Shown piece by piece: positions 447-47,775 of a stretch of 59,298 bases of DNA; positions within the stretch are counted from its first letter, which is position 1, and the number at the start of each line of letters is the position of its first letter. Source of the DNA: a virus (lineage: Duplodnaviria > Caudoviricetes). The translations under genes and the position numbers were made by a program. The stretch lies in IMG/VR virus record IMGVR_UViG_3300009508_000017, positions 1 through 59,298 of that record. The stretch is one strand, 5' to 3'. The notes below the pieces were generated by a model. It made no database searches. It had not been told where the DNA came from and worked only from the letters and a program-made list of their open reading frames with translations.

Positions 447-559
447 ATTTGGTATTTCCTTACATTGTTAATAATAATAATACACCTCTTACTTACTCCA
501 CTTACCCTCTCTCCCTATTACTAAGGCAGGTAATGATAGTTGAAAGCCACCAGCACCAT

Positions 560-599
560 AAAAAAAGACAGACACACGCTGTTACACGCATGCCTGTCT
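560..599 (-). terminator. Intrinsic terminator
   Basis: Minus strand AGACAGGCATGCG-loop-CGTGTGTCTGTCT (13-bp stem with G-U pairs) followed by a T run, just after the stop at 607. Confidence 0.8.
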
Positions 600-606
600 C
601 TCTTTG

Positions 607-765
607 TTAGGTTGTTGTTTCTGTTGTTGTTTTACTCTTCTTTGAGAGGGCTTTTGCTAGCCAAGGAGTTTTGTTAATTCTCATTGTATTAACTGCTTCG
701 TTTCGTTTCTTTCCGTATCCAGCTACTCCTTCTTTTCTTTTTCGTTTTGTGTTTATGTTAGCCAT
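607..765 (-). CDS. Small basic hypothetical protein (52 aa; not in ORF track)
   Basis: Translated by hand: MANINTKRKRKEGVAGYGKKRNEAVNTMRINKTPWLAKALSKKSKTTTETTT. Fills the gap between the kinase and the terminator. Confidence 0.65.
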   Translation of the reverse strand: MANINTKRKRKEGVAGYGKKRNEAVNTMRINKTPWLAKALSKKSKTTTETTT

Positions 766-799
766 ATATCAATTTTGTTATGTTGTTATTGTATTAGTT

Positions 800-1570
800 T
801 TATGTTGTCACACTCCAAGCATGACCATTTTCATGAGCTTCTGCTATGTGGTCTTTCTTGTATTCTTGCATGGCATCGTCATCTTTTGGATGATAGTGCG
901 ATATGTGCGTAGGGCCTTCTGCTGAGTCATACGTATTGTCTACATAGTTACGATAAGCAGGCAGATCTAACACACGATGTGTTACACTTTGGCAATGATC
1001 GCAATCAGTGCTGTCGATAGTCAGTCCGATTTGTCCTAACCATACATATTTACCTAGATGTACTGTGTCTTCATAACCAAGAGCATGTGCTTTTGCTTCA
1101 TCATAATCATAATCAAATACGTTAGTTATTGTTTTAACGTAGTGACTAAGTATGTGACCAGGTAGCTCTAATAATGTTTGAGCTCTTAATTTAACTGCTG
1201 GCACAGCATGCTTTTGATTTGCTTGTCTTTGTTGCCAAGGTGCATCGAACTGCATTAGATGTAGCTCAGTGTCGTAGAACTTTGCTAACTGTAAGTATGG
1301 CATTATCTCCCACAATGTTAAGTTAGTGTTGTCTACAATAATGACATCTTTTTTCTCTCCTAATGCAGATGCATACTTATCGAAGCATTCGGAATGAGCA
1401 TTACATAGTTTATGATGATTGAACTTGTAATTAAACGATCCATCAATGAAGTAATCGTCTGCAGAACAGTATGCTAACGAGAGATAGTTTTCTCTACACC
1501 AGTCTTTAACTGCTACTGCATGTTGGCTCTTTCCTGCACCGCTTGTGCCTCTGTACATTATTATTTTCAT
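800..1570 (-). CDS. AAA_33 / N4BP2-like P-loop (polynucleotide) kinase
   Basis: Walker A RGTSGAGKS, plus SADDYF and IIVDNTN motifs; C-terminal extension with CDHC. Confidence 0.85.
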   Translation of the reverse strand: MKIIMYRGTSGAGKSQHAVAVKDWCRENYLSLAYCSADDYFIDGSFNYKFNHHKLCNAHSECFDKYASALGEKKDVIIVDNTNLTLWEIMPYLQLAKFYDTELHLMQFDAPWQQRQANQKHAVPAVKLRAQTLLELPGHILSHYVKTITNVFDYDYDEAKAHALGYEDTVHLGKYVWLGQIGLTIDSTDCDHCQSVTHRVLDLPAYRNYVDNTYDSAEGPTHISHYHPKDDDAMQEYKKDHIAEAHENGHAWSVTT

Positions 1571-2019
1571 AATGTTACTTCTAAGTTATATACTAGTTTG
1601 AATACCTCTGCTGTTATTTGCATGACGTAGTTTGTTTTACTCAAGGCTCCTGGACCTTCAGGCATGTAGTCACCTTGTACACACAGGCTGTCTTGCCTTG
1701 TGTGTGGCTTACTAGAGTTCCATGTGTGGAATTGAATGTAATGCCATTTATCTTTTGTGAATCTCCAGTTTGCTTGGCCAGAAGTTAACCAACATATACA
1801 AGCATTATTCGGTAGTTCTGACATCAATGAAGATGCTTTGATTAACTTCACTGGATTTGAATCTACATTTGCAAAAGCTTTTTGCTTTTTGAAATATATA
1901 CTTAATCCGGTTGAATCTTCACATTCTTTTATCTGCCTAGCAATGGATGATAGTTCTGGACAAGGTATATTTACTGGCACATCAATGTATTCGTTTCGTT
2001 TTAATTTAGTATTTTTCAT
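1567..2019 (-). CDS. Hypothetical protein (150 aa)
   Basis: Overlap-coupled ORF in the early operon. Confidence 0.7.
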   Translation of the reverse strand: MKNTKLKRNEYIDVPVNIPCPELSSIARQIKECEDSTGLSIYFKKQKAFANVDSNPVKLIKASSLMSELPNNACICWLTSGQANWRFTKDKWHYIQFHTWNSSKPHTRQDSLCVQGDYMPEGPGALSKTNYVMQITAEVFKLVYNLEVTL

Positions 2020-2314
2020 AGTTTAGTTGTATGGATTCGTAATCATTAGGGTCAAATGTCGGAGACAAAGGTTGAGTTGCTTTGGCAAACTCTCTTGTAT
2101 TCTTGACATTTATTAATCTAGGCTGGTCAAAGCCTTTGTTTTTCATTGTATTGACAACATGAACAGCTAGGGCTTGAGTTGTTTGTCTAGTAGCTTCTTC
2201 TTCTACTTGTTCTCTGCCGGCATCGTATCCACACTTCCTTAATATTCGTTGTGCGGATACGATGCTTGCTTGTTCACGTGCTTTTTCACGCGACTCTTTA
2301 TTCTGTTTCTTCAT
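2006..2314 (-). CDS. Hypothetical protein (102 aa)
   Basis: Overlap-coupled ORF in the early operon. Confidence 0.7.
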   Translation of the reverse strand: MKKQNKESREKAREQASIVSAQRILRKCGYDAGREQVEEEATRQTTQALAVHVVNTMKNKGFDQPRLINVKNTREFAKATQPLSPTFDPNDYESIQLNYEKY

Positions 2315-2792
2315 AAGTAATTCCCAGGTCTTGTGGTGTCCAATTCTTAGATAACTTACTTCTTAGTAGAACGTTTGACTCTCTTAGGTTAATGAATTCT
2401 TCAAAGCTAAGGTATGAGTTGCTGTTCTGTTCTTCTTTATCTAGTCGCTTTTCATGAGGATTTAATTCCTTCATGTGATGCACGATGTTACTTACTCCAT
2501 TGGTATATAGAGCACTTAACTTGTTGTCTACGGCAGGCACTATTTTGTATAGTATATCTGCTAATACAACGTCCTGTATTTTGAACTTGCTTGCTAGTCC
2601 TGGTTGTTGCTTGAGTCTACTTGAGAAGACCGCTGCTTTTTCCATCTTCTCTGCTTTTTTAGCAATGAAGCTGGCTTCGTTTAAAGATTCGTACGTACCT
2701 ATTAACCGTTCACCTGTATAGGTTTTGGTTTTTGGGTCATACATGGACAGTCTTATAACTGAATGTTTAGTTGTTTGTATTATTGATATCAT
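2298..2792 (-). CDS. Hypothetical protein (164 aa)
   Basis: Overlap-coupled ORF in the early operon. Confidence 0.7.
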   Translation of the reverse strand: MISIIQTTKHSVIRLSMYDPKTKTYTGERLIGTYESLNEASFIAKKAEKMEKAAVFSSRLKQQPGLASKFKIQDVVLADILYKIVPAVDNKLSALYTNGVSNIVHHMKELNPHEKRLDKEEQNSNSYLSFEEFINLRESNVLLRSKLSKNWTPQDLGITYEETE

Positions 2793-3162
2793 CTTTTAGT
2801 TCATCGAGGGTTTTACTTAGTTTTTCTGCGTATTCTTCTTTTAGTTCTATAGCTTTATTACTTATGCTATTTTCTGATTTGTATCCTTTGTTATCCATGA
2901 CACAGTCTGCTAGTAGCAGGACTATGTCTGATAGTTCTCTTAACAGGACTACGTCTGCTGCATCAGCGGCTTCATCTACGTCAAGCCCCTGATCCATAAG
3001 CCTGGCCATGTCATTGAAACATTTTCTTTTTAATGTCTCGCTGACCATTGCTGCTGCGAATATTTCTGGATGCTTACAGTCGCTTACCTTGTCATAGGCA
3101 AGTTCTATAACTTGTTTTATTGCATCTTCTTTGTCTTCTGAATCTTCTTTTATGTATACCAT
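2767..3162 (-). CDS. Hypothetical acidic helical protein (131 aa)
   Basis: Coupled ORF (TAATG junction at 3162). Confidence 0.7.
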   Translation of the reverse strand: MVYIKEDSEDKEDAIKQVIELAYDKVSDCKHPEIFAAAMVSETLKRKCFNDMARLMDQGLDVDEAADAADVVLLRELSDIVLLLADCVMDNKGYKSENSISNKAIELKEEYAEKLSKTLDELKDDINNTNN

Positions 3163-3413
3163 TAGGCTGCTCTCCTTATATTTTGATTGTTATATTTCTT
3201 TCGTGCTGTGAATATTTTGCTCCACTCGTTTGCTATGTTTTTTACATAGACCACACCACCTACGCGTCTTGCGCATTGCTTGGCCCATTGTAATCCTTCT
3301 GCACTTTTCATGTATGCAACTTCATAGCCGCCTCTGATTATTGTTCCGTCGCTTAGTCTTTTTGCGTGTTTCTTTGAGGGATCTACGCCTTCCCTGAATA
3401 CGAAGTATGACAT
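3162..3413 (-). CDS. Hypothetical protein (83 aa)
   Basis: ATG preceded by AAAGGA; first gene after the conserved leader at 3444-3526. Confidence 0.7.
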   Translation of the reverse strand: MSYFVFREGVDPSKKHAKRLSDGTIIRGGYEVAYMKSAEGLQWAKQCARRVGGVVYVKNIANEWSKIFTARKKYNNQNIRRAA

Positions 3414-3443
3414 CGTTTTTCCTTTGGTTTATTGTTTCTGTTG

Positions 3444-3526
3444 TTTAATGAATTAAATAAGTATAATTCAAAAAATATATATAAAATTTACATACACTGT
3501 TCTAGTTTGTTATACGTGATGATAGT
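3444..3526 (-). promoter_or_regulatory. Conserved early promoter/leader element, copy B
   Basis: Minus-strand ACTATCATCAC box followed by an AT-rich block that aligns by eye with 9562-9641. Confidence 0.6.
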
Positions 3527-3560
3527 GGCCGGGGCAATGCGCTTGGGCACTACCCCGACC
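3527..3560 (-). other. GC-rich RNA hairpin downstream of rIIA, without a U-tract
   Basis: GGTCGGGGTAGTGC-CCAAGC-GCATTGCCCCGGCC; 14-bp stem with G-U pairs that favour the minus-strand transcript. Confidence 0.65.
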
Positions 3561-3569
3561 GAGCTTTAG

Positions 3570-6098
3570 TTAGCTGGACAAGTATTTTACAATAGAATCT
3601 AGTATGTAAGTGTTTTCTCTGTTGTTGTATTGCATGTTATCTGCAATTGCTTTTTCATCTTCATCCTCGGCTAGTCTTCTACCTAGACCAAACATGTAAT
3701 CGTCAAGGATCCTGTCTTGATCGTTATATTCACCACCTTTATTTAACAATTGCTTCATTTCTTTTGCTATTACATTTAGCAAAGGCCAATTAGCTTTAAC
3801 TGTTTTTAGTGTTTTTAATACTAATGTTTTTGTTAAGGTGTTTTTGTTTGCTTTGTCTTTACACAGCTTAAGTATTCCTAGTTCTTTTGCTTGTATTAGA
3901 ATGCTTGCACATGGTTCTGAATACGCATACGAGATTCTTGCTAAGTCTGTTAGCAATTTGTATCTGGTAGACGATATCTTTGTTGATAACGATTTTTTTA
4001 TTTGAGTGAACACATAATTGAATTCATCAAGCAATTCATTAATAGACGAATGCCTTAGTCTAGTGTACTGCCAGTTATATCCTTTAGACAATCTGCCATC
4101 TAACGTTATGGAATCACGATGATCTTCGAAGCCAGGTTCTCGATATCTAGTACTTAAGATTTCTTTTAATCTTACATGATTGTCTAAGACATCACTTTTA
4201 GCATGCTCTTCTTTTATCTTTCTAGATAAGAGAGTAGCTGCAAACTCATATAGATTTATTGCATTAGGTAACTTATCAATTATCTTGTAGTGCTTTTTTC
4301 TAACACCGTATAGATCTGCATTTTTGAATGATAGTGCGTCATCAACCATATAAGCAGACAATGCTTTCTTTTCATCATCTGTTGCATATTTTATATATTG
4401 TTTTGCTATATTTATTATATGTTTAAGCCTGTCTTTTGAGATCTTTGCATCTGTTTGATTAACATTTGTAACATGTTTACTTTCAGGCGTTATTGCTGAA
4501 TGTCCTGACAGATACATACACAACACTGCTTTTGAAGAACTTATAGACACGTTACCTGCATCAATCCATTGATTAGTTTCCATTAGATAACTGCTACCTG
4601 TGTTCATTTTGAACAGTTCTACATGTGTAGTAGAATCTCTTGAGCTAATACTTGCTTGTGCTTTTGCTGGTTCATAATCCATTAGGTTGACAAGCTTGTC
4701 TTTAGCTATGAATGGCAGTCCGACTGTTTTTCTCATAACCTCAAGGCTGGACTTTATGTCTCTTGGGAACGCTATGATTTTCATCTTACTAGGTTCTTTG
4801 AATTCATTCATGAACGACTTGATTCTTTTAGTTACATTTGCTTGGCTGGTTCCATGGTCGAAGAACACAATATGTAATGTGTTGTTTTTCCAGGAATGAG
4901 GACCGAACCTGACGTAATGGTTATCGTTATCTGCAAACAGTTTGTCACTACCTCCGTGATATCTTTTTTCATAGTAGATATAGTCGATACCTTTTGCTAT
5001 CGGTATGTTGGTATTACATACTGAGTTATTTACTCTAGCAGAGAGTAAGTTGATCAATGAATTATCTAATTCTTGGATGACTTCACTGTATACTTTTTGT
5101 GCATCGAGATAGCACGGTATGTTGTTTACTGCATTTGCACTGTCGCTGAGTACCTGTTCTAAGATATCTTCTGCTGCCTTACTAATGTTAGTTATCGTTA
5201 GCTTGTTGTATTCTAACTCTTCTCTGTTTGAAGCGATACTGAGATCTCCAATGTCAAAAGAAATATGAAGACTACTTTCGTTAAGCATTGCTCGCATGGC
5301 TGACGTGATACCTGGTAGCTGCTGCGTGTTGATAGGATATCCTATGTTGCCCATGACTGCTACAGCACCTCTGTATTTGTTGAAATGCCAAGTGTTGTCT
5401 TTCTTGTAACGTTTGTACTTGGCTTCTTTAGTAATTACTTCAGGTAGTTTTAGACCATCGTCGCCCCATCCAATAATTTTTGGCTGTACTTTGCTTGTTA
5501 AGCATAGATTCCAGATTTCTGATTTGAACTGATCGATGTCATTTGTTGATACTCCGACTCCGATTTCTATACCTGTATCTTCACCTTGTTCTGCTAACAC
5601 AGGTGGTTGCATAACCTTTAACGTTCCAGTGTGTGATTCATCAATGATTGCTACATACACGGCTTTCATAATAGCATCGTCTTCTTTCCACCAGCTTGTG
5701 ATAGTAAATTGCGAACCGTATGCGAATGCAGCTTTACATCCGATACCTAATCCGCCTGTTAACTCATCTGTGTTTCTTTTAGTAGAACACCCGTACATTA
5801 CATACACTTCTTGGATCATCTCTTTTGATAACCCTGCACCGTAGTCTCTAACTTTGAACTCTGGTTTGGTTGTTGTAGGTAAGGTAACTTCAACACTTTT
5901 AGTAACATTGTGAGTCTTATGTTCATCTAATGCATTAGTAATATACTCACGAACTACTGCAGCTGGTTTGTTGGAATATATTTTACTACGCAACATCTCC
6001 ATAATGATTGGAGAATCTGCTGAACGAATACCGAATTCGGTGCTTTCCATATTGTAATCGCTTTGGATTACTGATCTGTTGTCTCTAACTAATTTCAT
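3570..6098 (-). CDS. rIIA: rIIA-like protein (N-terminal GHKL/HATPase domain)
   Basis: YSNKPAAVVREYITNALD, VRDYGAGLS, GGLGIGCKAAFAY and SIASNREEL motifs; 842 aa; adjacent to rIIB. Confidence 0.9.
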   Translation of the reverse strand: MKLVRDNRSVIQSDYNMESTEFGIRSADSPIIMEMLRSKIYSNKPAAVVREYITNALDEHKTHNVTKSVEVTLPTTTKPEFKVRDYGAGLSKEMIQEVYVMYGCSTKRNTDELTGGLGIGCKAAFAYGSQFTITSWWKEDDAIMKAVYVAIIDESHTGTLKVMQPPVLAEQGEDTGIEIGVGVSTNDIDQFKSEIWNLCLTSKVQPKIIGWGDDGLKLPEVITKEAKYKRYKKDNTWHFNKYRGAVAVMGNIGYPINTQQLPGITSAMRAMLNESSLHISFDIGDLSIASNREELEYNKLTITNISKAAEDILEQVLSDSANAVNNIPCYLDAQKVYSEVIQELDNSLINLLSARVNNSVCNTNIPIAKGIDYIYYEKRYHGGSDKLFADNDNHYVRFGPHSWKNNTLHIVFFDHGTSQANVTKRIKSFMNEFKEPSKMKIIAFPRDIKSSLEVMRKTVGLPFIAKDKLVNLMDYEPAKAQASISSRDSTTHVELFKMNTGSSYLMETNQWIDAGNVSISSSKAVLCMYLSGHSAITPESKHVTNVNQTDAKISKDRLKHIINIAKQYIKYATDDEKKALSAYMVDDALSFKNADLYGVRKKHYKIIDKLPNAINLYEFAATLLSRKIKEEHAKSDVLDNHVRLKEILSTRYREPGFEDHRDSITLDGRLSKGYNWQYTRLRHSSINELLDEFNYVFTQIKKSLSTKISSTRYKLLTDLARISYAYSEPCASILIQAKELGILKLCKDKANKNTLTKTLVLKTLKTVKANWPLLNVIAKEMKQLLNKGGEYNDQDRILDDYMFGLGRRLAEDEDEKAIADNMQYNNRENTYILDSIVKYLSS

Positions 6099-6167
6099 TT
6101 AATTAATATTTATATTATATAGGTGTACCGTTTTGACCCACGGTACCACAGGTTCTTTTCTTTTTAC

Positions 6168-7232
6168 TTAGCTGATATCGTCAGCAGTGGCTTCGTCTAA
6201 GAGATCACTTAGCTTCACGTCATCTACTTCGAACTCGATATCAAAGCCGGTATCTTCACCATTGACTTCTTCTAACAGATCAGTCCAACAGTCGGACCAC
6301 CACTGGCTAGCACCGAATTCGCTGTCTAGATATGATTTGGATACTTTTACATATCCATTTTCTTTCTGACTTTGAATGTAGTTACGAGCTTTGTACCAGT
6401 CATCGTGATACTGTTGTGTTTGTGATAGTTCTCCGTTCTCACTTTCTGATTCTGTCAGTTCGCCATCTTCATCGTTATAGACAGGAGCTGTAAGATAAGC
6501 ATCATTTCGTTGTTCTCTTGGTATCTCGCAAACAACTTGATACTTTGAAACTCTAAGCTTTTCGAACATCCCATCTTCCGGTACAGACACAGCGTCTGCT
6601 GGATCGTATTTAACAACCATAAGATGTCCGTCGTGACCTGCCCAACCATCTGCATAATCTTTACTACCTACATGGAAACCATGGGAGCATTGATTGTTGC
6701 AGTTGTCATCTACACCTCTTCTAGCCATGCTATTTACTTCTCCAGGTTTGTTACTGAACTTACCTGAATATTTATCCATGTAGTCATGTGCAACACCCTT
6801 GTAGCCAAGTACGCAGCCGTCTTCTGTGATAGGCATTTCTTTATGTTCGATAAACTTATACAGCTGTTCTCTCGAGTTTTTCGAGGGATTGTTGTACGTA
6901 TTTTCCATGAATTTTATATACATGGTTAGGTCAGCATGACCTGATGATATGATGTCCAGTAGTCTTTTGACTAAGCTTTCAGCAAGAACGTCTTCTTTAT
7001 AAAGAACGTTATTACCTTCTGCTTTTAGTAATCCATTTGATTGTTTTGCAATCATGTCCATGGGATTTAACATGCATTCGATGTCAGAATATTTCTTTTC
7101 CAAGATAGCTACTTTAATAGCTTGGAAGTTCATATTACCTGATGTGACGTGGTGCATCGTTCCGTTATAGAAGAAACAGATGCTTTCGTCGTTTATTATT
7201 GCTCCAGTTATGCTCATAATATTTTTGCCCAA
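6168..7232 (-). CDS. rIIB: rIIB-like protein
   Basis: PITEDGCVLGYKGV, CSHGFHVGS, DPADAVSVP and KLRVSKYQV motifs. Confidence 0.9.
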   Translation of the reverse strand: MGKNIMSITGAIINDESICFFYNGTMHHVTSGNMNFQAIKVAILEKKYSDIECMLNPMDMIAKQSNGLLKAEGNNVLYKEDVLAESLVKRLLDIISSGHADLTMYIKFMENTYNNPSKNSREQLYKFIEHKEMPITEDGCVLGYKGVAHDYMDKYSGKFSNKPGEVNSMARRGVDDNCNNQCSHGFHVGSKDYADGWAGHDGHLMVVKYDPADAVSVPEDGMFEKLRVSKYQVVCEIPREQRNDAYLTAPVYNDEDGELTESESENGELSQTQQYHDDWYKARNYIQSQKENGYVKVSKSYLDSEFGASQWWSDCWTDLLEEVNGEDTGFDIEFEVDDVKLSDLLDEATADDIS

Positions 7233-8603: not shown

Positions 8604-8802
8604 TTTTATTTGTTGTACACATGTAACAGGATTGTCCTTGGTCTGCTTGGAAGCGCATTACTTGGCTTACTGAACAAGTAGGACATTTAACCATTTCTCT
8701 ATTTTTTTTTACCGTTAGAGATGCGTTGAGAACTTCCCAAGGTCTTTCTTTAATTCCTCGGGTTGCATTACGCAGCAGCTCTCTGGCTTCTGCATATGAC
8801 AT
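8596..8802 (-). CDS. Small zinc-ribbon protein
   Basis: CPTC...CYMC. Confidence 0.65.
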   Translation of the reverse strand: MSYAEARELLRNATRGIKERPWEVLNASLTVKKNREMVKCPTCSVSQVMRFQADQGQSCYMCTTNKNA

Positions 8803-9159: not shown

Positions 9160-9193
9160 GTTGTTATTTGTTATTATTTGTTATACAGAAAAT

Positions 9194-9547: not shown

Positions 9548-9561
9548 ACAAAACCTTTTTT

Positions 9562-9641: not shown

Positions 9642-9696
9642 TGTTCGGCCAATACAAACGCTTGCGTATAACATGTGTCAAGTTTATTATACAGTC

Positions 9697-10416: not shown

Positions 10417-10438
10417 GCCTAAATGTATAGAGCAAACG

Positions 10439-10690: not shown

Positions 10691-10726
10691 GTGTTATATA
10701 GATATTAGGGTTCCTTGAATAGCTCA

Positions 10727-38379: not shown

Positions 38380-41300
38380 TAAAAGAAAGTTTTTATCGTC
38401 ACATCCGAAAGCCTAGAGCCTATATAGTATAACGAGGTGTCTATAATTAGATCTGAACCATTTGTAGGATTACTGGCAGTATGAAAAGTTACATAATCTT
38501 CAACTTCTTCTATTACTTCATAAAAGTAACCCCTAGGAATAGCTGTTGACAGGTAAGAGCTTGCAGCTGAATTTTCTTTCCTTAGCAGAGGCTGTCCTGA
38601 TCCTGAAATTCCCTCGACAAGAGCGTAGTTTCCCTGAACATAATACACTCCTGCACCGGTTGAGAAAGAGTTTTTGATAAGCACCTTTTGACCAATGGTC
38701 AAAGCATCATTTGGCTGTTCCACGTCAACGGGTTGTTTCTTTTGATACTGGATTTGATTGCTTGCGGAATAATGTCTAATTCTAAGCCAATCACCTGCGG
38801 TCAAATAGTGTGCACCCGTGCTAGGAAATCCAGGAGCATTAACTGATCCGTTACCATTTACTGAAAGCCAATATGGTTGAAAATTTCCAAAATCTACGTC
38901 TTTGTAAGTAAGTCCTACCTCAAGGGACTTCCCAAGAACTACCTGGAACTGAGTATACCCGTCTCTGTTACCTGACATTGTTTGAGCTGAAGAAGCTCCA
39001 GTATTGTAACCATTAGGGCCAGCAGTTTTCTCAATACCTCCTCCTGGGTAAGTGGTGACGACACCAGCGGCTTTTACTCCTTCAAAGAAAGAAACAGAGT
39101 TTATTGTTCTACCATTAAAGCAGAGGACTTTTAAACCGTAAATAAGAGTTCCAGAAGGCACTTCAACGCTTGCAGTATTTATGCATGTACAGTTCTGAGT
39201 ATTGTTTGTTCCAGTAGAACCTGTCCAGGGCAATGTAATCGAATTTCCAGTCGAAGTAAGAGCAGCTACTTGAAGTATTCCAACATCTGCATAAGGTCTT
39301 TCGAACACTACGGTGTAAGTTCCTGCTCCTACTGGAGATGAAAACATTTGCTTGATAACTATATCTGTATTATAGCCTGTTAAAAACCCTGAATAGAGCC
39401 CTACAGTGTCTGCGGCTCCGGTTACCTTAGTCCAACCTACTGGGGCTTCAAAAGGTGAAGTACTCGGAGGAGTAGCGTATTCCCATTTTGTCCCACGATC
39501 AGACATATTTACCCATTCCCAATTTCCTGTGTTTTGATTGCTTGACCAATAGGGATAATCCCGTGGGTCATTTGGGTCTTCCATCCTTTGAAGTGCTCCA
39601 CCCCCTCCGCCTCCGACTCCATGTAAAACAGTGCCAACAGGAAATACGATGCTTGGGTCACCTAAAGCAAATGGATCCAAGACAATTATGTTCACAGGAG
39701 CATCCCCTGCTCCACCATTTGTCCCATCGTTTTGAGGGTCTGCCACGATTTGCTGGACAGCATCAAGTGTTCCGTTTACTAACAGCTCTGAGCCCTCTCT
39801 AATATATTCCTTGTTTTGCCATCTTACTGGTTCGTCGTAAATAAAATCGGCTGTGGGTGGGAAAGTTGCATATGGAAATGCTCCTACTCTTATTGGAGTT
39901 CTGGGTGCATTTGGAGTGAGAAGACCAGTGATAGTAGTGTTGACTGCGGCAACTGCATTTGGGGCAGTATTTATAATAGGTATTTGAGGCGCGTTTGGAT
40001 CGTAAGATACAGTAGGTACCAATGTCTGGTTCGGTCCTACGAACAATCCAATTACTGGTGCTTGAGGCGCAACTGGTGTTGCTAATACTACTGGCACTTG
40101 AGGAGCGGTAGGTCTTGCGGACACTCCAATCACAGGTGCTTGAGGCGCACTTGGTGATTTTGTTATATAGAATATAGAGTTGAGTGTTGGTGCTGCTGGG
40201 TTTGAAACAGAAGTTACTGAAGAAACCTGGCCAGGTCCATGAGCTACGAGCACCTGGTCTACTGCACCTGGTTTTCCTCCAACTGTGATTGTCTGAGGAG
40301 TGTTTGGAGAGTTCTGTACCGTAGGAACCAGTGTTTGGTTTGGCACTCCCACTACAGAAACTGTCTGAGGAGTGTTTGGAGTGTGAGATACCACAGGAAT
40401 TTGTGGAGCTGAGGCACTTTCCCCAGAAGTCACTATTTGCGGTGCTGAAGGTGATTTCTGTATAACAAGCAAACCCTTTAAGGTTGCTGCATTTGGAGAA
40501 TGTTCGACAGTTACAAGAGCTGGCATTCCCACAGTTACTACCGAAGTCAAGAACTGAGGAGCGTTTGGTGCGAACAACATTAGTTGCGTACTTACAACTG
40601 CTGGAGCTCCTGGATTTGTTTCTATTACCTGAGGAGCGTTAGGAGAAACTGTAATAACAGGTGTAGTAACAGCGACTGGTTTGCTTATTGCGGTTACAAT
40701 CGCTGGAGCTTCTGGTATGTGGTCTACAGATATTATAGAGATACTGTTCGGAGCTGTAGAAAGAACAGGAACTTGAGGAGCCACAGGTCTTGCTCCAGCT
40801 GTTACAACTTGAGGCGCATTCGGGTTGTGAGAAATGACCGGAATTCCTGGTCTTGAAAGGAGTTTTATTGTTGTTACGATACCTACAGGTTGAGGTATAG
40901 TAGAAACTGTTATTGGAGCTACCTGATTTGGAGCGGTTACTATAGAAGCTACAGGAATCTGTACTGCAACAGGAGGGGTGTGTATTATTCGATCTATAAC
41001 AGGAGCGTTTGGATCGCTTACTATTACAGGTATCGTAGTCTGATCTGGAGACTTGGAAAGAGTTACGGTAGAGACTCTGCCTGGAGAATGTTCGGATGTA
41101 ACTAATTGAGCTGCATTCGGGTCGTGCTCTATGGTTACAGATACAACTCCGTTTGGTTCTGATGCAATACCTACAAATGCAGGAGCCAATGGGGGTCTTG
41201 TAATTCCTCGGTATAGACTGTAATCAGAAGCTAAAGGAGTGTTTGCAAACTCAACGTATTCCCATGTAGATCCCCTGTCACTAAGTTCAAATATTTGAGC

Positions 41301-42068
41301 AGTTTCAGTTCCACCTATTAAGCCGTCATCTGTTTGTAAAAGATCAAACGGACCTCCTGTGGAAGAAAGGTATTTCTGAATTTTAACGATTTCGTTCTCG
41401 TATCCGAGAGGATAGTCTGGTTCGTTTGGTGAGTTCGCAAATCCAAAAGGTACGAGAATTGAGATGTAATCTGTTTGCACAGAGGAGTATCTCCAAAGTC
41501 CGATATGAGGAGCATTGTTTTCGTAAGCTTCTGCCTGAGTAATTGTGACTGCGTTTGGATCGCTTTGAACCGTAATGCTTGCAGGCATAAGAACATTGTT
41601 TCCAGAACTGACAACAAGAGGTTTGTTGGGCTGGTGTTCGACAGTAATAGCAGGTGCATTTGGACTTTGAACCACTGTTGTAACAGCGGGAGCTTTTGGG
41701 TCTTGCCCAACGACCACTACCCCAGGAGCAATGGGATCTGTTATAACACCAATGGGCTTTGGTTGACCAGGAGTGTTATTAATAACAGGTGCTAGTGTTG
41801 CATTTGGATCTACTGAAATGGTAACAGCAGCTGCATTTGGACTAAATTGAATTGCAGGAACGAGAGGCTGATTAGGCTGAAAATTTACAAGGACTCCATA
41901 TTTTAAAGGAGGTCCTGGAAGAAAAGGCCCAGCATATCTGGGAGGAGCTCCAAGAGGATCTACTTTACCAAAAGGTTTTACCCTATCGGAAAGACCAGCT
42001 AGCTCATCCCCGTAGGGTAATATTCGATCTACCAGACCGTCTACTTTATCTTCCAAGGGTGCAATCAT
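38379..42068 (-). CDS. Fibre/scaffold protein (1229 aa) with about 45 Pro-rich 12-aa repeats and C-terminal globular domains
   Basis: Repeat blocks at 41526-41876 (10 units) and 39885-41192 (35 units). Confidence 0.8.
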   Translation of the reverse strand: MIAPLEDKVDGLVDRILPYGDELAGLSDRVKPFGKVDPLGAPPRYAGPFLPGPPLKYGVLVNFQPNQPLVPAIQFSPNAAAVTISVDPNATLAPVINNTPGQPKPIGVITDPIAPGVVVVGQDPKAPAVTTVVQSPNAPAITVEHQPNKPLVVSSGNNVLMPASITVQSDPNAVTITQAEAYENNAPHIGLWRYSSVQTDYISILVPFGFANSPNEPDYPLGYENEIVKIQKYLSSTGGPFDLLQTDDGLIGGTETAQIFELSDRGSTWEYVEFANTPLASDYSLYRGITRPPLAPAFVGIASEPNGVVSVTIEHDPNAAQLVTSEHSPGRVSTVTLSKSPDQTTIPVIVSDPNAPVIDRIIHTPPVAVQIPVASIVTAPNQVAPITVSTIPQPVGIVTTIKLLSRPGIPVISHNPNAPQVVTAGARPVAPQVPVLSTAPNSISIISVDHIPEAPAIVTAISKPVAVTTPVITVSPNAPQVIETNPGAPAVVSTQLMLFAPNAPQFLTSVVTVGMPALVTVEHSPNAATLKGLLVIQKSPSAPQIVTSGESASAPQIPVVSHTPNTPQTVSVVGVPNQTLVPTVQNSPNTPQTITVGGKPGAVDQVLVAHGPGQVSSVTSVSNPAAPTLNSIFYITKSPSAPQAPVIGVSARPTAPQVPVVLATPVAPQAPVIGLFVGPNQTLVPTVSYDPNAPQIPIINTAPNAVAAVNTTITGLLTPNAPRTPIRVGAFPYATFPPTADFIYDEPVRWQNKEYIREGSELLVNGTLDAVQQIVADPQNDGTNGGAGDAPVNIIVLDPFALGDPSIVFPVGTVLHGVGGGGGGALQRMEDPNDPRDYPYWSSNQNTGNWEWVNMSDRGTKWEYATPPSTSPFEAPVGWTKVTGAADTVGLYSGFLTGYNTDIVIKQMFSSPVGAGTYTVVFERPYADVGILQVAALTSTGNSITLPWTGSTGTNNTQNCTCINTASVEVPSGTLIYGLKVLCFNGRTINSVSFFEGVKAAGVVTTYPGGGIEKTAGPNGYNTGASSAQTMSGNRDGYTQFQVVLGKSLEVGLTYKDVDFGNFQPYWLSVNGNGSVNAPGFPSTGAHYLTAGDWLRIRHYSASNQIQYQKKQPVDVEQPNDALTIGQKVLIKNSFSTGAGVYYVQGNYALVEGISGSGQPLLRKENSAASSYLSTAIPRGYFYEVIEEVEDYVTFHTASNPTNGSDLIIDTSLYYIGSRLSDVTIKTFF

Positions 42069-42334
42069 CTAAACATGTCAGGGTGGCGTGCTTTAGTTTT
42101 TTTAGCAGCCCTAGACAAGTTTGCCTCAGCAATCTTTGTAGGAGACATTAAATCAAGAGCGTTAAGCACTGCTTTTAAATTAAGAGTTTCTTGGTCAGAA
42201 GTGTCTGCTTTTAACATTTTAGTTAAATATCTTTCCTTTTCTTTCTGGAAAGCTCTTTCAATAATCTGAAAGGACTCACTATTAATGAGCCTTTTCATAT
42301 CAGAAAGATTGTCATATATTATAATGTCGCTCAT
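42065..42334 (-). CDS. Small helical protein of the kind often found after podovirus portal genes
   Basis: 89 aa; DMKRLINSESFQII pattern; coupled to its neighbours. Confidence 0.65.
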   Translation of the reverse strand: MSDIIIYDNLSDMKRLINSESFQIIERAFQKEKERYLTKMLKADTSDQETLNLKAVLNALDLMSPTKIAEANLSRAAKKTKARHPDMFR

Positions 42335-45300
42335 TAAAATGCGTGTGATGTGGTTGGTAGTCTGTACCAGGAGTTGTCGCTAGCACTGAAAGTAATTACT
42401 ACCCCGTCTCGTTTTACAAAAACAGTACCCGAATCGTCTACAAATTCGATTTTACTGTCTCCATAATCTACTCCACTTACGGAATCGACTCCAGAAGGTA
42501 TTGCTGCAGAAATTTCAGTTAAAGTCGGGTCGGTAGCTAAAGGATTTCCAAAAGATCCTGCTGATCTCCAATTGCTGTACAGATCACAAGGAGCTTGAGG
42601 GAAGTTGATAACACCTACAGTTCCGTCAACATACAATATTCCAATAGTAGTAACATATCCGTTTTGATCGGAGGCTGTCGGTACAGAAGTGTTGTCTGCG
42701 TAATCATGGACACTTTTTCCTGAGTTGTGGTCTGTGCCTATGCGGAAACATTTCTTAATTGGTACAGCAGTGTCTATGGAGTCACCAACACCTGCTCCGG
42801 TAAAATGTATTCCCCAATAGAGAGGTCTAATGACAGACTTTTCTATAAAGGCTCCTCCTGAATCCAGTTCGTCATACCAAGTCATTATAGGATGCCATAC
42901 GAACCTAAAATTCATGGGTCCGAAGACTCCTGGATTCAGTTTACCACTATAGTCGATAGTGGTCGCACCTCCTGTAGAACCTGTGTAGCCTCCTGCAAGA
43001 ATTGGAGTAGGATTTCGAAGATTTCCTCCTGGGGCCCAGGCAGTCCAATGGTTCCTGCCCATGAAATAGAGTTTTTTGTCTGACTTGTAGAAAAGATTAA
43101 ACTCATGACCACAATAGAAGGTGTGCATTCCTGAGATGGCATCATTAGTAAGTACCTGGAATGACGAGCTGCTTCTTGGGGAAGAGAGGTAAGTGTGGTA
43201 ATTAGAGCCTGTACCAGATCCAACACTTCCAAAACCTGAACTGGTGCTTGATCCGTGAAGGTTCGTACCTTCTTGAAAAAGCATACTGCCTCCAGAGAGT
43301 GCAAAATACTGTTTATCCCAGCCTATCGTGTTATCGGAAGGCTTTCCCCCGTCTATTAATTTTAATGGAGAGGTTGTATCCCAATCGACTCCTTGTGCGC
43401 CCAGACCGGTCGTTCCGCCCGCAGATCCCGCCACATCTTGTAAGCAGTTGTAATGACCTATGAACCAAAGGTCGGTTTTCAGTCCTGTGTTTCCGTGACT
43501 AACAATGAAAATACCCTGTTGTTTTGCAGTACCTCCTTTATCTTCATGTGAAGTTACTTGTATTATACCGTTATATGCAGTTGGCATAGAAGTGTTGTCG
43601 ATATAGTTTGAAGTATCTACCCAAAATGCTTTCAAGGAACTGTAGTTAGGGTCATCTGGAGTATTAGAAGCTGAAGTTGCGTTTAATACTAGATCTCTAC
43701 TGAGTAGAGAATTAGAAGAGGTTTTTGGAGCTGTTGAAAATATTTTATTCTTATAAATTTCCCAATGATTTTCAGAACTAAATCCTGGAGAAACTCCGTA
43801 AACTACGTCATTAGTTTCATGTCCAGCAAAAGCTCTTTTAATCGGAGTTGCTCCACCGAATATGTATGGTTCGGTATCTGAATGTTGATACGAATTACCA
43901 GGGTCGGTCACGGAATGATCAGAAATAGTTTTATTAGTCAGTGTTGCTCTTATTTTTGCACCGCTACCAGTGTTTTGTTCTGAAATTAAAATAGCTGGAA
44001 GGTATTCATACTCTGCTCCTGCCACATCTACCTGGATGTCGTTTTTAGACAATCCTCCAGCTGCGGCAGTGGCGAAAGGACTTGCTGTCTTGGTGCTGGA
44101 CATTTCGGCAACTGTAACTGCAGTGGTGTTTTCAACTGGAGGGCCTGAAAGGCTAGAGTTGTTTGGAGCTATGTCTGCATTATCTCCAACCCCGTCACCA
44201 TCGGTGTCAGCTGATTCGGAAGCATCCAGTGGAAAGGCATCGGCAGTATCAAGTACGCCGTCGTTGTCATCGTCGGTGTCGAACTCATCGTCTATGCCGT
44301 CTCCGTCGGTGTCAGTCCCAGATGCTCGATTTGGATCGAGTGGGAAACTGTCGTTTGTGTCAAGTACTCCATCACCGTCGTCGTCAGTGTCTGAAACATT
44401 GAATGTACCGTCGTTATCTGTATCCAGTCTGACCAATAGTGTGAAATTCTGACCATGTATGTAATCGCCAGTAGCGTCGTTTATAGCTTTAACGGATATA
44501 TAGTAAAGACCTTCAAACTTAGCAAAGGGATCATCAGGAAAAGTAAAAGAAGTAGTGGTTGTGTCGAATTTATCTGAGAACAAGGTAGAGCCCCAACTGC
44601 CAGGATTACTGGTATAGTTAGATGCATTACCACCGTCTCCATAACATCGAACTAAGACTTCGTATCGATCTGCACCTCCTACAGGGTCCCAGGAGAATAC
44701 AGTACCCACAGGGTTGTGTGCTTCTGCATCTAAACTGGTGTCTGCTGGAGTTAGTCCAGTACTTGGTATTGAATAGTTGCCTGGCGGGTCTGCAACTGCA
44801 TCCGTCAATTTGTAAACAGCTAAAGGTAAGTTGTTATCTAGCCAATTGTTGGGGATCGACCAGGTTCCAGAAGAACTGTTTAACATGCCTGAAACTGATT
44901 TATCTTTCCATGCAAAGATTCCGCCTGCTCTAAAATTGTCACCAGACCTGGAAAGGTAGGCTTCTTTAGGTTGATAAACATTACTATACCAGTTATTCGG
45001 GTCTGTAAATGAAATGAAATATAATGCCGACCCACCACCTGAACTTGTTTGAAGATAGCCTGATTTATATCTTCCCGCTACAATTCCTTCAGGGAACCCA
45101 ATATCTGTATATAATGGAGCAGATCCGTAATTAGTTCCATCGTCGTTCGTAGCTGTAAAAGTGTGAGTTCCTGCAGGCATATTAGTGTTGCTATCCCAGC
45201 CACTACCGCCAACCGTTAACGTAAATGAAGTGATTTGATTGTTCGAGTCCTTAGTGTAAACAGGATTTAAAAGGTTCTGAAGAGTTGTGGTTTGATGGTC

Positions 45301-47775
45301 TTGATAAAAAAGGACACTGTAGGGATCTGAGGTATCAATCGAGTATTCAAACAATTCTTGCTGGTGAGAACTCCATGTCCAGTTGGGGTTTTCATCCAAA
45401 TCTGCGCTGATGATTGGAAACCTGTCTGAATCTATAACCATTCTTTGGGTTGGGACTAGAGAGCTGTCATTTACGATTTTTTGTTTAAATATCTGCTGTA
45501 GTTGATCTCCAAAATAATAAGCAGTTAGGTCGTAACTGGTTCCAAGTTCTGTATTTAAATCATCAGTGTAGTCGTCTCTGTTACCTCCAGCGTTTCCTGC
45601 GGATGAGTAATCTGATGAAACGGTATAAGAAACGACTCCAGCCTCGGATAGAGTAACTGTGGTTTCAGTAAATCCTAAGATATCCTGTGGTTGGCCTTCG
45701 TAGTATGCTTTATATGCATAATTCCAATTGTAAAAATTAGGAAGCGCCTGAGCGTTTGGTGCAAGCGGGAATCCTGAAGGTTGGAGACTTCCTCCGAAAG
45801 TAATGTCTGTAGAATCGTAATAGTAAGTTACTCCATCTATTACTAAACTTTGAACATTGTTTAGAGCAGTTGAGGCTTGATATAAAGGGTAGTAATAACC
45901 TACTCCGTTTGTTCCGTCATTACCATATACCATAAAAGGCTGGTTCATTAATTGGTTTGTGACAGTGCTTGGAGCTTCTGGATCTTTCCCTACAGTCGTA
46001 GAAGTGATCGAATTCGGATCGTGTTGGACGGTAAAGTTATTAACGACTCCAGGATCTGCCCCTACGGTTGGTGTAGAAACTGCACTTGGATCGTGGGCTA
46101 CAGCTAAAGTGCTTATTGCATTCGGGCTGTGGCTTACGCTAGGAATTGAAACTGCAACGGGGAGGTCTTTTTTACCTCCTATTAAAATGTATCCTGGAGG
46201 CAGTGTGATCGTACTTCCAGGGATTGCCACCGTTTCGTCACCAGTAAGCGGATTCCAAACGACGTAAATATCGTCAGTTGATACGCTTCCAGGAACTACA
46301 ACAGTTTGCGAGGTTGAAGAGTTGTTCTGTATAACAGTTAAGTCGTTGTCTCCAACTGAAAGAAGTATGTCGTCGGGTTCACCGTTACCACTAGCTCCAC
46401 CTATTATTATAGTTCCTGTAGGATAGAGGTTAAGTGTTCCTCCAATTTGGAACCCTCCACCTGTTTGTATTTTAGGAACACCTGTTATAATGAATCCTCC
46501 TGGAGGTATCGTGATCGTTGTTCCAGGAGCTATGATAGTAGTAAGCCCTGTCGCAGGATCGTAAAGCCCTGAAACCAGAGGCATTCCGGGTACGGAGGTA
46601 GCAGGAACTGTATGTTCTTGGCCAGTGCCTGCTGGGTTTTTAGTGATGTCTATATCCGCACCACTCCCACCATCACTAAATCCTGCGAGATCATCAAGGA
46701 ATGTTTTCAGTTCTCCTGTGATTGGTATTGTGCTACCTCCTACGGTGATTCCAGTTCCATTATCTAAAAGAGTTTCTGATCCACCTTGAAGTTCTAGATC
46801 GTCCGAGATCCCATCTCCGTCTGTGTCGGATAAAGTAGTTCCCACATTTGAATCAAGGGGATCTAAATCGTCTCCATCTAAAATTCCATCGTTGTCATCA
46901 TCAGGATCGCCTGAATCAATAATTCCATCACCGTCTGTGTCTGGCTCTGTGTCGTTTCCGGGATAGTCAGCATCTATGATGTTCGGTATTCCGTCTCCGT
47001 CTATATCGTCATTGTTGGTGTTTACATAGTTCACTCCTTGAGGAGATCCAGTTCTGTCAAGGGTGTTCCAGTTTGCAATAACTCCTCCCTGGCCTTGAGG
47101 CCCAGTATCTCCCTGATATTGATATACGGGAAGCCCGTTTATGAGTAAATTGCCATTCCCGTCTGAGCTGACAGTTGCGGTCATAGGAGGCACTGCGTTT
47201 ATCGTGCCTTGAACTTTAACCAGTGGCCACCCACTTCCACCATAGTTAGGTGGCTGTCCTGCAACGTCTCCACCAAAAGTGTAAACAGTTCTTGGCTCTT
47301 CTGTGCCGGTTCCGCCAGCCAAAGTAACAACTATGAAAGTGTTTCCGAGGGCGTCTGTTATAGTAGAAACTATAGTGTTTTTAACAAAGTTAGGATCTTG
47401 AGAGTCCATGACACCATTACCTGTAGAATCTTGATCGGAATCTACTGGGCTGGGCGAGCTTTGAGGAACAAGTTCATTACTAGGTATTAAGAAAGATCCA
47501 GGAGAGCCAGCAGCAATAGAGGTTGTGGTGTTGATAACAAACCTAGTTTTTCCGTCTTGGCCTACTTCAACTACTGCTATTCTTTTATTTCCTTCTGGGA
47601 CTGAAGGCACTGCCCAAGAAGCCGTATTTCCTTTACCTGGAGGGGTAAGCCTGTTGGTAGGTGTGGTGACTCCGTAAACCAGAGTAGATCCGAGATCTAG
47701 AAGATAGACTAAATACTCAGAAGAATCTACGTCTTCTGAGAGTTGTAACCAAGAAACTTTTATATGCTGTGCCAC
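42334..47775 (-). CDS. Large multidomain adhesin-like virion protein (1813 aa)
   Basis: N-terminal Fn3-like domain, Lipoprotein_15-like segment, two clusters of TSP3-type DxDxDG Ca-binding repeats, six 12-aa Pro repeats, an internal Fn3 (FSWDPVGGADRYEV...YYISVKAIN) and an RCC1-like blade. Confidence 0.75.
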   Translation of the reverse strand: MAQHIKVSWLQLSEDVDSSEYLVYLLDLGSTLVYGVTTPTNRLTPPGKGNTASWAVPSVPEGNKRIAVVEVGQDGKTRFVINTTTSIAAGSPGSFLIPSNELVPQSSPSPVDSDQDSTGNGVMDSQDPNFVKNTIVSTITDALGNTFIVVTLAGGTGTEEPRTVYTFGGDVAGQPPNYGGSGWPLVKVQGTINAVPPMTATVSSDGNGNLLINGLPVYQYQGDTGPQGQGGVIANWNTLDRTGSPQGVNYVNTNNDDIDGDGIPNIIDADYPGNDTEPDTDGDGIIDSGDPDDDNDGILDGDDLDPLDSNVGTTLSDTDGDGISDDLELQGGSETLLDNGTGITVGGSTIPITGELKTFLDDLAGFSDGGSGADIDITKNPAGTGQEHTVPATSVPGMPLVSGLYDPATGLTTIIAPGTTITIPPGGFIITGVPKIQTGGGFQIGGTLNLYPTGTIIIGGASGNGEPDDILLSVGDNDLTVIQNNSSTSQTVVVPGSVSTDDIYVVWNPLTGDETVAIPGSTITLPPGYILIGGKKDLPVAVSIPSVSHSPNAISTLAVAHDPSAVSTPTVGADPGVVNNFTVQHDPNSITSTTVGKDPEAPSTVTNQLMNQPFMVYGNDGTNGVGYYYPLYQASTALNNVQSLVIDGVTYYYDSTDITFGGSLQPSGFPLAPNAQALPNFYNWNYAYKAYYEGQPQDILGFTETTVTLSEAGVVSYTVSSDYSSAGNAGGNRDDYTDDLNTELGTSYDLTAYYFGDQLQQIFKQKIVNDSSLVPTQRMVIDSDRFPIISADLDENPNWTWSSHQQELFEYSIDTSDPYSVLFYQDHQTTTLQNLLNPVYTKDSNNQITSFTLTVGGSGWDSNTNMPAGTHTFTATNDDGTNYGSAPLYTDIGFPEGIVAGRYKSGYLQTSSGGGSALYFISFTDPNNWYSNVYQPKEAYLSRSGDNFRAGGIFAWKDKSVSGMLNSSSGTWSIPNNWLDNNLPLAVYKLTDAVADPPGNYSIPSTGLTPADTSLDAEAHNPVGTVFSWDPVGGADRYEVLVRCYGDGGNASNYTSNPGSWGSTLFSDKFDTTTTSFTFPDDPFAKFEGLYYISVKAINDATGDYIHGQNFTLLVRLDTDNDGTFNVSDTDDDGDGVLDTNDSFPLDPNRASGTDTDGDGIDDEFDTDDDNDGVLDTADAFPLDASESADTDGDGVGDNADIAPNNSSLSGPPVENTTAVTVAEMSSTKTASPFATAAAGGLSKNDIQVDVAGAEYEYLPAILISEQNTGSGAKIRATLTNKTISDHSVTDPGNSYQHSDTEPYIFGGATPIKRAFAGHETNDVVYGVSPGFSSENHWEIYKNKIFSTAPKTSSNSLLSRDLVLNATSASNTPDDPNYSSLKAFWVDTSNYIDNTSMPTAYNGIIQVTSHEDKGGTAKQQGIFIVSHGNTGLKTDLWFIGHYNCLQDVAGSAGGTTGLGAQGVDWDTTSPLKLIDGGKPSDNTIGWDKQYFALSGGSMLFQEGTNLHGSSTSSGFGSVGSGTGSNYHTYLSSPRSSSSFQVLTNDAISGMHTFYCGHEFNLFYKSDKKLYFMGRNHWTAWAPGGNLRNPTPILAGGYTGSTGGATTIDYSGKLNPGVFGPMNFRFVWHPIMTWYDELDSGGAFIEKSVIRPLYWGIHFTGAGVGDSIDTAVPIKKCFRIGTDHNSGKSVHDYADNTSVPTASDQNGYVTTIGILYVDGTVGVINFPQAPCDLYSNWRSAGSFGNPLATDPTLTEISAAIPSGVDSVSGVDYGDSKIEFVDDSGTVFVKRDGVVITFSASDNSWYRLPTTSHAF

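Follow-up and report, generated by a model that had tools for sequence, protein, structure and literature searches.

The heptamer TGATAGT is a selected, strand-tied signal in a clade of uncultured marine N4-like phages

The IMG/VR virus record IMGVR_UViG_3300009508_000017 (Duplodnaviria; Caudoviricetes) was analysed over its whole length of 59,298 bases, hereafter called the window (CheckV completeness 87%). It belongs to a clade of uncultured marine N4-like podophages, has an N4-gp56-type capsid protein and a giant protein of 3,148 residues, and carries the heptamer TGATAGT 19 times on the + strand and not once on the - strand. By comparing the window with its relatives, we found that TGATAGT, more exactly RTGATAGT (ACTATCAY on the other strand), is a selected signal of this clade that is tied to one DNA strand. 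Its orientation is set by the DNA strand, whatever the local gene direction, and it reaches about 1 to 2 copies per kb in a ~10-kb leftward early-type block adjoining the replication module. The feature is real, selected and clade-wide, and the word very probably acts as a signal at the level of the DNA strand. Some DNA enzyme should read it, and our tentative first choice is a strand-specific nicking system of the kind known from a few other phages.

The polarity of the window recurs throughout its relatives. Forward and reverse counts were 19:0 in G001, 19:0 in G002, 27:0 in G003, 10:0 in G004 and 26:0 in G005, the five large records, and 24:0 in the record G031; a further 23 IMG/VR records gave 118:2 in sum, 21 of them being exclusive. 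The two exceptions, one reverse copy each in G012 and G019, both lie inside the giant gene. In 89 capsid-centred loci (833,108 bases), which were oriented by the capsid gene and lie in records of the other tallies, so that the counts overlap in part, the capsid-sense strand holds 112 copies of ACTATCA and none of TGATAGT. This is the strongest asymmetry of all 7-mers in these loci, where the neighbour words TGATAGA, TGATAGC, TGATAGG and TAATAGT occur 11, 13, 6 and 65 times. TGATAGT is also the top asymmetric 7-mer in the window (first among 7,869 reverse-complement pairs), in G001 and in G003 alike. Across four lineages the word gives 75:0; its one-mismatch neighbours have 8 to 30 forward copies and mostly stand at about 1-5:1, and the polar ones among them are TGATAGC (19:0) and TGATAGG (8:1). 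The polarity is absent from coliphage N4 (6:12) and from a 1.6-Mb cellular bin, a mis-binned metagenome-assembled genome (140:135), both taken as controls. Another heptamer, CTGGTTC, is unremarkable in this clade, at 9:3 in the window and 1 to 4 copies on each strand in four relatives. At the DNA level the lineages are independent, since the window aligns with each of the others over 3 to 5% of its length; G001 aligns with G003 over ~31% at 70% identity, while G002, G003 and G005 are near one another, as are G004 and G013. A search of the full-text literature, the only one made for an earlier description and with supplementary nick-site tables outside its reach, gave no description of TGATAGT or ACTATCA in connection with phages among the papers listed, where all uses were unrelated.

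The coding DNA of 11 genomes makes it possible to separate the DNA strand from the sense of the genes. In rightward genes (82.5 kb), the sense strand reads TGATAGT 16 times and ACTATCA not once; in leftward genes (376 kb), the corresponding counts are 2 and 88 (Fisher P 4e-17). Some of these genomes are related to one another; nine of them each supply at least one rightward-gene copy, and none supplies a reversed one. Because coding bias would favour one and the same sense in genes of either direction, a codon artefact and readings at the RNA level are ruled out, and so is the caveat, raised in the first-pass annotation, that the TGA-TAG held in one frame pushes the word towards non-coding strands: the rightward genes carry precisely this stop-containing word in sense. 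The control phage G030 illustrates what coding bias gives, in that the similar word ACTATGA tracks gene sense on both of its arms (18:0). Its complement TCATAGT had been tried as a sister motif and was rejected for that reason. The first-pass annotation was right that the orientation is kept in the oppositely transcribed module, and its treatment of the early region needs the correction that the genes at 1 to 9.7 kb run leftward, so the + strand word is antisense there. An anti-termination factor, which it had also suggested as a reader, would track gene sense, which TGATAGT does not.

Selection acts in both directions, enriching the forward orientation and actively purging the word from the opposite strand. 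In four lineages no reverse copy was seen, against 14.1 expected from synonymous shuffles or 17.7 from codon permutation. In the dense blocks of six genomes, 55 coding copies compare with 14.87 +/- 3.37 expected (3.7-fold enriched), the largest of 200 shuffles reaching 26. The rightward genes are enriched as well (16 vs 6.00 +/- 2.34, 2.7-fold, largest shuffle 13), and the leftward genes outside the block hold 24 copies, a value that the largest shuffle also reached, vs 15.04 expected. The block of the window holds 7 coding copies vs 2.04 expected, and 1 of 200 synonymous shuffles reaches 7. We also looked at the strand part of the GC skew at four-fold sites, which shows a G excess of about +0.05 on the + strand in four of five genomes and about 0 in the window; as evidence of replication direction it was rejected, being too weak and confounded by gene class.

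On the window alone we would have called the finding weak, because a codon-aware null explains much of its excess; the claim is carried by the relatives. Dinucleotide shuffles, with both strands summed, expect 9.07 +/- 3.18 copies, and 1 of 100 reaches 19. The codon-aware nulls for the window used 300 shuffles each, with non-coding copies left fixed. Under synonymous shuffling, 11.94 forward copies are expected vs the 19 found (2 of 300 shuffles reach 19) and 2.65 reverse copies vs none (21 of 300 give none). In the first 9.7 kb, 11 forward copies stand against 5.16 expected, and no shuffle of the 300 reaches 11. Ranked by this null among 16,384 words, TGATAGT comes 296th in the whole window and 50th in its first 9.7 kb. 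Of the outcomes that the first-pass annotation had named as refuting, a loss of the enrichment under codon-aware nulls did not occur in the pooled blocks, though only a modest excess is left in the window by itself; reverse copies, far from being equally common, are absent.

All 19 + strand starts that had been listed by eye proved exact. Eleven copies fall within ~9.1 kb (534-540 to 9635-9641), spaced by 357 to 1,370 bp, in agreement with the 0.4 to 1.4 kb first given, in a block of leftward genes whose coding strand reads ACTATCA. All three frames are used there, giving Thr-Ile, x-Leu-Ser or x-Tyr-x. The copy at 534-540 is intergenic, between genes 42-446 and 607-765, and that at 891-897 lies in gene 800-1570(-) with the sense codons CAC TAT CAT (HYH). 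Copies 1948-1954, in gene 1567-2019(-) as GAA CTA TCA, and 2929-2935, in gene 2767-3162(-), both encode ELS. The copy at 3520-3526 is again intergenic, downstream of rIIA and upstream of gene 3162-3413(-). Two copies lie within rIIA itself (3570-6098, -), at 4329-4335 (ALS) and at 5699-5705 (ACT ATC ACA, TIT), one within rIIB (6168-7232, -) at 6423-6429 (ELS), and one at 7613-7619 in the open reading frame (ORF) 7214-7894(-) (ILS). The copy at 8916-8922, in gene 8803-9159(-) (TIT), is among the few that align with a copy of a relative (G001 54387). The last copy of the block, 9635-9641, sits in the divergent region, ~60 nucleotides (nt) ahead of position 9697, where the rightward HNH gene probably starts, and overlaps only one doubtful 49-residue ORF of the - strand.

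Beyond the block the copies are sparse. Three fall in the rightward module: 11926-11932 is intergenic, 7 nt past the stop of gene 11224-11919(+); 14911-14917 is also intergenic, 10 nt ahead of the ATG at 14921; and 19763-19769 lies in gene 19335-21437(+), where the stop-containing word is read in sense as GCT GAT AGT (ADS). The remaining five lie in leftward genes, at 24325-24331 in 23800-25530(-) (LLS), 30995-31001 in 28443-32771(-) (TII), 35746-35752 in the major capsid gene 34281-35783(-) (NYQ), 39929-39935 in 38379-42068(-) (TIT) and 46533-46539 in 42334-47775(-) (TII); the capsid-gene copy has no aligned copy in the nine relatives compared. As the first-pass annotation had noticed, the copies at 11926, 14911, 24325, 39929 and 46533 extend to TGATAGTAGT. 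This extension was rejected as part of the signal, since it occurs in 5 of the 19 window copies vs 0 to 2 of the 6 to 27 copies per relative.

The distribution seen in the window, a dense ~10-kb early-type block with sparse copies beyond it, is found in every lineage having that block. The genomes share one plan, with leftward structural genes, a ~10-kb leftward block of small genes including rIIA and rIIB, and a rightward replication module; the dense block adjoins the rightward module in the window, G001, G002, G003, G005, G013, G016, G018 and G031. The first-pass annotation had named a lack of conserved positions as a refuting outcome, and this one did occur: most positions differ between lineages, and what is kept is the word, its polarity and its regional density. 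Few positions align, among them window 8916 and one rIIB-like site common to G001, G013 and G016. Density and direction count, not place.

Around the word itself, a single base carries flanking information: in 119 of 145 copies TGATAGT is preceded by a purine. Beyond this base, the flanks of about four in five copies are not conserved. The sites are found in every frame; some lie between genes, some overlap start codons (ACTATC-ATG), and some fall within the loop of a terminator hairpin that is repeated. Of the copies listed, 37 of 135 are intergenic, in genomes of which gene models cover ~87 to 94%. In the relatives, a conserved palindrome lies upstream of two or three intergenic copies in each genome; it is GCTAGC or GGTACC, the former in the arrangement GCTAGC-N0-3-ACTATCAT. 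These extended copies occur either at the divergent junction, next to the HNH gene, or directly behind a terminator, 18 to 50 nt before a gene, for example at 7601, 7642 and 68032 in G003 (oriented), 48094 and 55781 in G001, 36974 and 45979 in G016, 795 and 6126 in G018, and 1159 and 8916 in G013. No copy of the GCTAGC type is present in the window. A 70-nt intergenic element, which includes GGTACCA-ACTATCA-N16-ACTATCA, lies at the far edge of the block in G001 (L092:7304-7467), G003 (L098:2567-2730) and G005; G002 has a near-identical core form, and the second ACTATCA is degenerate in G016 (L115:18116-18279) and G018. It also contains a small C-rich/G-rich hairpin ahead of these words and an A-rich run after them, and it is absent from the window. 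Lineages with little other DNA in common have kept this element, which may serve as an origin, a terminus or a strong primary site.

By analogy with the Pseudomonas phages tf and Rembedalsseter, which have nick-associated motifs, we tentatively favour the possibility that the word is the recognition site of a phage strand-specific nickase. TGATAGT alone would be recognised by a phage-encoded, strand-specific DNA enzyme, and a site-specific nickase of this kind would leave localised single-strand interruptions in one strand of the packaged genome. Because one strand must, on this proposal, stay intact, copies on the other strand would be selected against, and the dense block would be the heavily nicked part of the genome. 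The genome of tf has two gene sets that converge, and all of its 14 TACT/RTGMC sites are found on the top strand, 11 in the same half; each site is a ligatable nick, and the heavily nicked part is the end seen attached to phage heads, which the authors suggest is packed first (Glukhov et al. 2012, PMC3517423). Rembedalsseter has 13 WACTRTGAC sites on one strand, where coverage falls in a strand-specific manner; this motif is kept in 60 relatives despite 8% BLASTN coverage, is concentrated on one side of the genome and lies 88% inside coding DNA (Dougherty et al. 2025, PMC11780129). Site-specific interruptions of one strand are also present in T5/BF23 and phiKMV-like phages, with a higher density in that half of the genome which, in the view of the tf authors, is packed first, and their function is described as still unknown (PMC3517423). 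TGATAGT shares all sequence-level features of the tf and Rembedalsseter motifs: a short exact word confined to one strand of genomes whose two gene sets are opposed, spread unevenly with one dense part, and found inside and outside coding DNA. As in Rembedalsseter, the word and its polarity are conserved across relatives of little nucleotide similarity.

The parallels have limits, and several points weigh against a nick site. The word differs, ACTATCAY here and TACTRTGMC or WACTRTGAC there; the cores read ACTAT-C-A and ACTRT-G-A, so that only ACTAT is shared. The phage family is different too, 7 to 8 bases are specified instead of 9, and the copy number is higher, at 10 to 27 compared with 13 to 14. 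The sites described here are known from assembled contigs, in which strand breaks cannot be seen. The T5 consensus of 7 nt also occurs on the un-nicked strand and needs extra determinants, and the phiKMV motif is a 19-nt bipartite site (PMC3517423), unlike the bare 7- to 8-mer that seems to suffice in this clade. Nor is tf a precedent for active purging, the absence of its 9-mers from the other strand being no more than chance predicts; because our word has only 7 to 8 specified bases, its absence from the other strand is real avoidance. Since G012 and G019 each hold a reverse copy, such a copy is not instantly lethal, and the palindrome-linked intergenic copies of the relatives look promoter-like rather than nick-like. 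Contig breaks in a DNA run (X4) were considered as nick traces and rejected, being unusable at a depth of 3-8x.

No nickase is named in the available parts of the tf and Rembedalsseter accounts (PMC3517423, PMC11780129). In the window, the only conserved nuclease candidate is the very basic HNH endonuclease of 75 residues encoded at 9697-9924(+), at the head of the rightward module (Pfam HNH_3, E 6.4e-8, 32.5 bits vs a cut-off of 24.8). It is the best-conserved protein of the clade, with a mean identity of 72.4% to five relatives compared with 62% for the portal protein and 55% for the capsid protein, and its fold is predicted with a mean confidence (pLDDT) of 88.7. Foldseek of this model against the PDB gave no match at E<=0.001, with I-HmuI, Cas8-HNH and colicin DNases appearing only at E>3. 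The family is widespread: metagenome collections contain 287 of its proteins, and it is present in at least 588 IMG/VR stretches, in contigs of 32 to 56% GC. A further point against the nick-site proposal, as far as this enzyme is concerned, comes from 80 HNH-bearing IMG/VR loci, in which TGATAGT stands at 59:45 and many marine phage contigs show no polarity; five loci (L125, L126, L140, L180 and L196) are forward-only with at least three copies, and no alternative polar word stands out among the 80. The records G032 and G033 gave 6:1 and 4:1. Because of the 59:45 count, the HNH protein is at most a generic nuclease partner, a nickase candidate without specific support. In one HNH-family contig from an unrelated phage (L158, 50% GC), the word GCTGGTG, which we take to be the first seven letters of the Escherichia coli Chi octamer, stands at 13:0 in an 11.7-kb locus and may be a coding repeat.

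An alternative that we regard as rather unlikely is a polar loading or recognition signal for a one-way DNA motor or helicase-nuclease, either an analogue of the FtsK-orienting polar sequences (KOPS) or a Chi-like signal for RecBCD/AddAB. Chi and KOPS are short oriented words read by enzymes moving on DNA; they are signals of host genomes, whose polarity switches at the replication origin and terminus, and known Chi sites are host-specific. Forward sites would recruit or tame the enzyme, and reverse sites would missend a KOPS-like motor; in the Chi-like variant, the host RecBCD/AddAB would enter at the first-exposed end. As with Chi and KOPS, the function would depend on density and direction, not position, which agrees with an orientation that is absolute for each DNA strand and independent of transcription, with forward copies that are enriched and densest in one block, and with positions that turn over while the density stays, as for a distributed signal. 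A KOPS-like motor would also account for the purge of reverse copies. If the genome end lay at the divergent junction, as on the N4 map, TGATAGT would be on the 3'-ended strand, and an enzyme entering there would meet its 3' side first, as the geometry of Chi is generally understood to require. However, no reader was found, no genome showed a polarity switch point of the type (dif or terminus) that marks KOPS or SpoIIIE recognition sequences, no terminal repeat joins the two ends of the window, and the contig ends of relatives fall at differing places. The host Chi signal proposed in the first-pass annotation is not supported: it does not predict removal of the inverse orientation, whose expected copies are lacking in four lineages, and it requires one word common to lineages with 3 to 5% of DNA alignable to the window, though the host group could be shared. 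A bolder version is a direction code, in which a phage or host translocase or the ejection machinery would load at RTGATAGT and move one way, the block at the first-handled end setting the direction of entry or packaging. Even one inverted copy, at any place, would make the motor stall or turn back, which would be why ~30 genomes are almost without inverted copies. We consider this code unlikely.

It is also unlikely, though a little less so than the direction code, that ACTATCAY is a minimal promoter or initiation site of a phage RNA polymerase, for which the giant virion protein would be suspected. Overlapping leftward transcripts of the early block might then pull the genome into the cell, and reverse promoters would be harmful. 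The word lies in sense orientation within the dense block, the intergenic share of the copies listed is high for genomes so densely covered by gene models, and the palindrome-linked copies of the relatives stand near the junction or a terminator, before a gene. ACTATCA presumably resembles the ACTATAG core of T7/SP6 promoters. The rightward genes are hard to reconcile with promoters, since they hold 16 copies that would fire antisense, an enriched class, and none that would fire in sense; the missing GCTAGC form in the window and the bare flanks of about four in five copies are also unfavourable. A precedent exists in N4 RNA polymerase II (RNAPII), which uses a minimal promoter from -7 to +2, gives a series of overlapping transcripts and belongs to a phage whose transcription drives genome injection (Lenneman and Rothman-Denes 2015, PMC4496689). 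Like the N4 RNAPII middle promoters, our word is a site of 7 to 9 bp with many copies in the early/middle region; unlike them, it occurs in a clade without a detectable RNAPII homologue, its rightward-module copies point against the genes, and N4 itself lacks this polarity.

No suitable polymerase could be detected. A T7-like RNA polymerase (PF00940) was sought in the window and in four relatives, of which two are complete, without a hit at E<=1, although the same model found coliphage N4 RNAP2 at 9.6e-15 and the N4 virion RNA polymerase (vRNAP) at 0.007. The giant protein (49821-59267, -) is placed where N4-like phages have vRNAP; it has 3,546 to 4,222 residues in the relatives, and only its last ~900 residues are conserved within the clade. 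A profile of five sequences against N4 vRNAP gave E 0.13 in low-complexity sequence and no similarity, sequence searches of the PDB gave no match at E<=1 and the ESM Atlas none, and across the five sequences neither motif B (R-x3-K-x6-8-[YF]G; two chance-looking hits in one sequence) nor DxDxD had a conserved match. On these results, all at the level of sequence, the giant protein was rejected as a vRNAP. Public metatranscriptomes were also inspected: two runs hold 54 to 59% of the sampled words of the first 10 kb, in short Logan contigs only, at about the depth of the DNA runs of the same study and with no places where many molecules begin or end. Of ~15 RNA contig right ends listed, one (9633) abuts a copy (9635), and we draw no conclusion from it.

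Evasion of a host Type III or Type ISP restriction enzyme, which cuts only between inverse sites so that one orientation is purged, is improbable. The word is asymmetric, its 7 bp come close to the length of Type ISP sites, and one orientation is indeed kept genome-wide whatever the gene direction. In T7, 36 EcoP15 sites share one orientation and the phage is unrestricted, while T3 has both orientations and is restricted (Rao et al. 2014, PMC3874151). TGATAGT resembles the T7 case in being an asymmetric short word in a single orientation along a whole phage genome; T7, however, is transcribed one way, so that coding bias is confounded there, whereas here the orientation persists across an opposed module. 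Under evasion the retained orientation should show no excess, yet it is enriched and clustered, the same block is dense in every lineage holding it, some copies are embedded in conserved intergenic elements, and one enzyme specificity would be required across the hosts of all lineages.

The stoperators of cluster A mycobacteriophages offer another comparison, being 13-bp, mostly intergenic sites whose orientation follows transcription. TGATAGT is likewise an asymmetric site in many copies across a phage genome, in a window that encodes an integrase and a ribbon-helix-helix protein, but its orientation ignores the direction of transcription. Finally, a by-product of codon usage, amino-acid content and TGA-TAG stops in a ~80% leftward-transcribed genome can hardly be maintained, for although the synonymous expectation and modest rank in the window and the gene-sense word of G030 are what it would give, it is contradicted by sense preferences that are opposite by gene direction, by the missing reverse copies, by the excess in the pooled blocks and by the top asymmetry in three independent lineages next to the 6:12 of coliphage N4.

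The genes of the window fit the shared plan. Leftward genes occupy 42-10,690 and 21,853-59,267, and the first 10 kb of the - strand encode a polynucleotide kinase (PNK)-like ATPase, rIIA, rIIB, a GP88-family protein and small ORFs. The other leftward genes include those for the integrase, a 500-residue major capsid protein (N4-gp56 family, PF13252), the portal protein and the giant protein. The rightward module (~9.7-21.9 kb, +) starts with the HNH endonuclease and then a ribbon-helix-helix protein; its replication part (11224-21856, +) encodes a sigma70-region-4 protein, a helicase, an exonuclease (14921-15769), a DNA polymerase, a deoxynucleoside monophosphate kinase, a 700-residue DUF5906-like protein and a PD-(D/E)XK-like protein (21413-21856). 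The PNK-like ATPase (800-1570, -; AAA_33; PHROG 'polynucleotide kinase', E 1.7e-8) sits in the dense block; such an end-healing enzyme would fit a phage that reseals nicks, which is only an association. The integrase (21853-22989, -) shares this N4-like genome with a 54-residue ribbon-helix-helix (CopG/Arc-like) protein (10880-11044, +) and with a 169-residue protein bearing sigma-70 region 4 (12063-12572, +). A temperate lifestyle would be unusual among N4-like phages; a search beside the integrase for a phage attachment site (attP) or host clue found no tRNA and no Rfam match.

The record is probably cut at its left end, since a 26,174-base contig of a DNA run (X1) spans window 1-20000 and runs ~3 kb past position 1. 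In the GenBank phage collection, which as searched may omit near relatives, blastn of window 3570-9700 found no match, tblastn of the portal and HNH proteins found none either, and tblastn of the capsid protein gave one weak match only, a Paracoccus phage. Used as a probe of IMG/VR, rIIA yielded no confirmed relative; the capsid alignment worked instead. Capsid homologues are abundant in marine metagenomes at 53 to 86% identity, and capsid relatives are present in 142 IMG/VR stretches; the scan of metagenome collections yielded only short capsid-centred contigs, and the genome scan one mis-binned contig. Among the matches listed, the first 10 kb of the window were found in 20 public runs from 12 studies.

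No function has gained acceptance for the strand-exclusive nick motifs of T5, phiKMV and tf, although such motifs became known as long as 50 years ago; the phages known to have them are so far cultured coliphages and Pseudomonas phages only. The abundant, uncultured marine clade described here shows this genomic signature too, and its word is shorter and is clearly selected against on the opposite strand; as the word has only 7 to 8 bases, enrichment and purge can both be measured, which the 9-mers of tf do not allow. A direction code, if true, would make the word the first example from a virus of an orienting system like KOPS. More generally, should the sites turn out not to be nicks, the pattern would call for a kind of oriented DNA signal that is new to phages.

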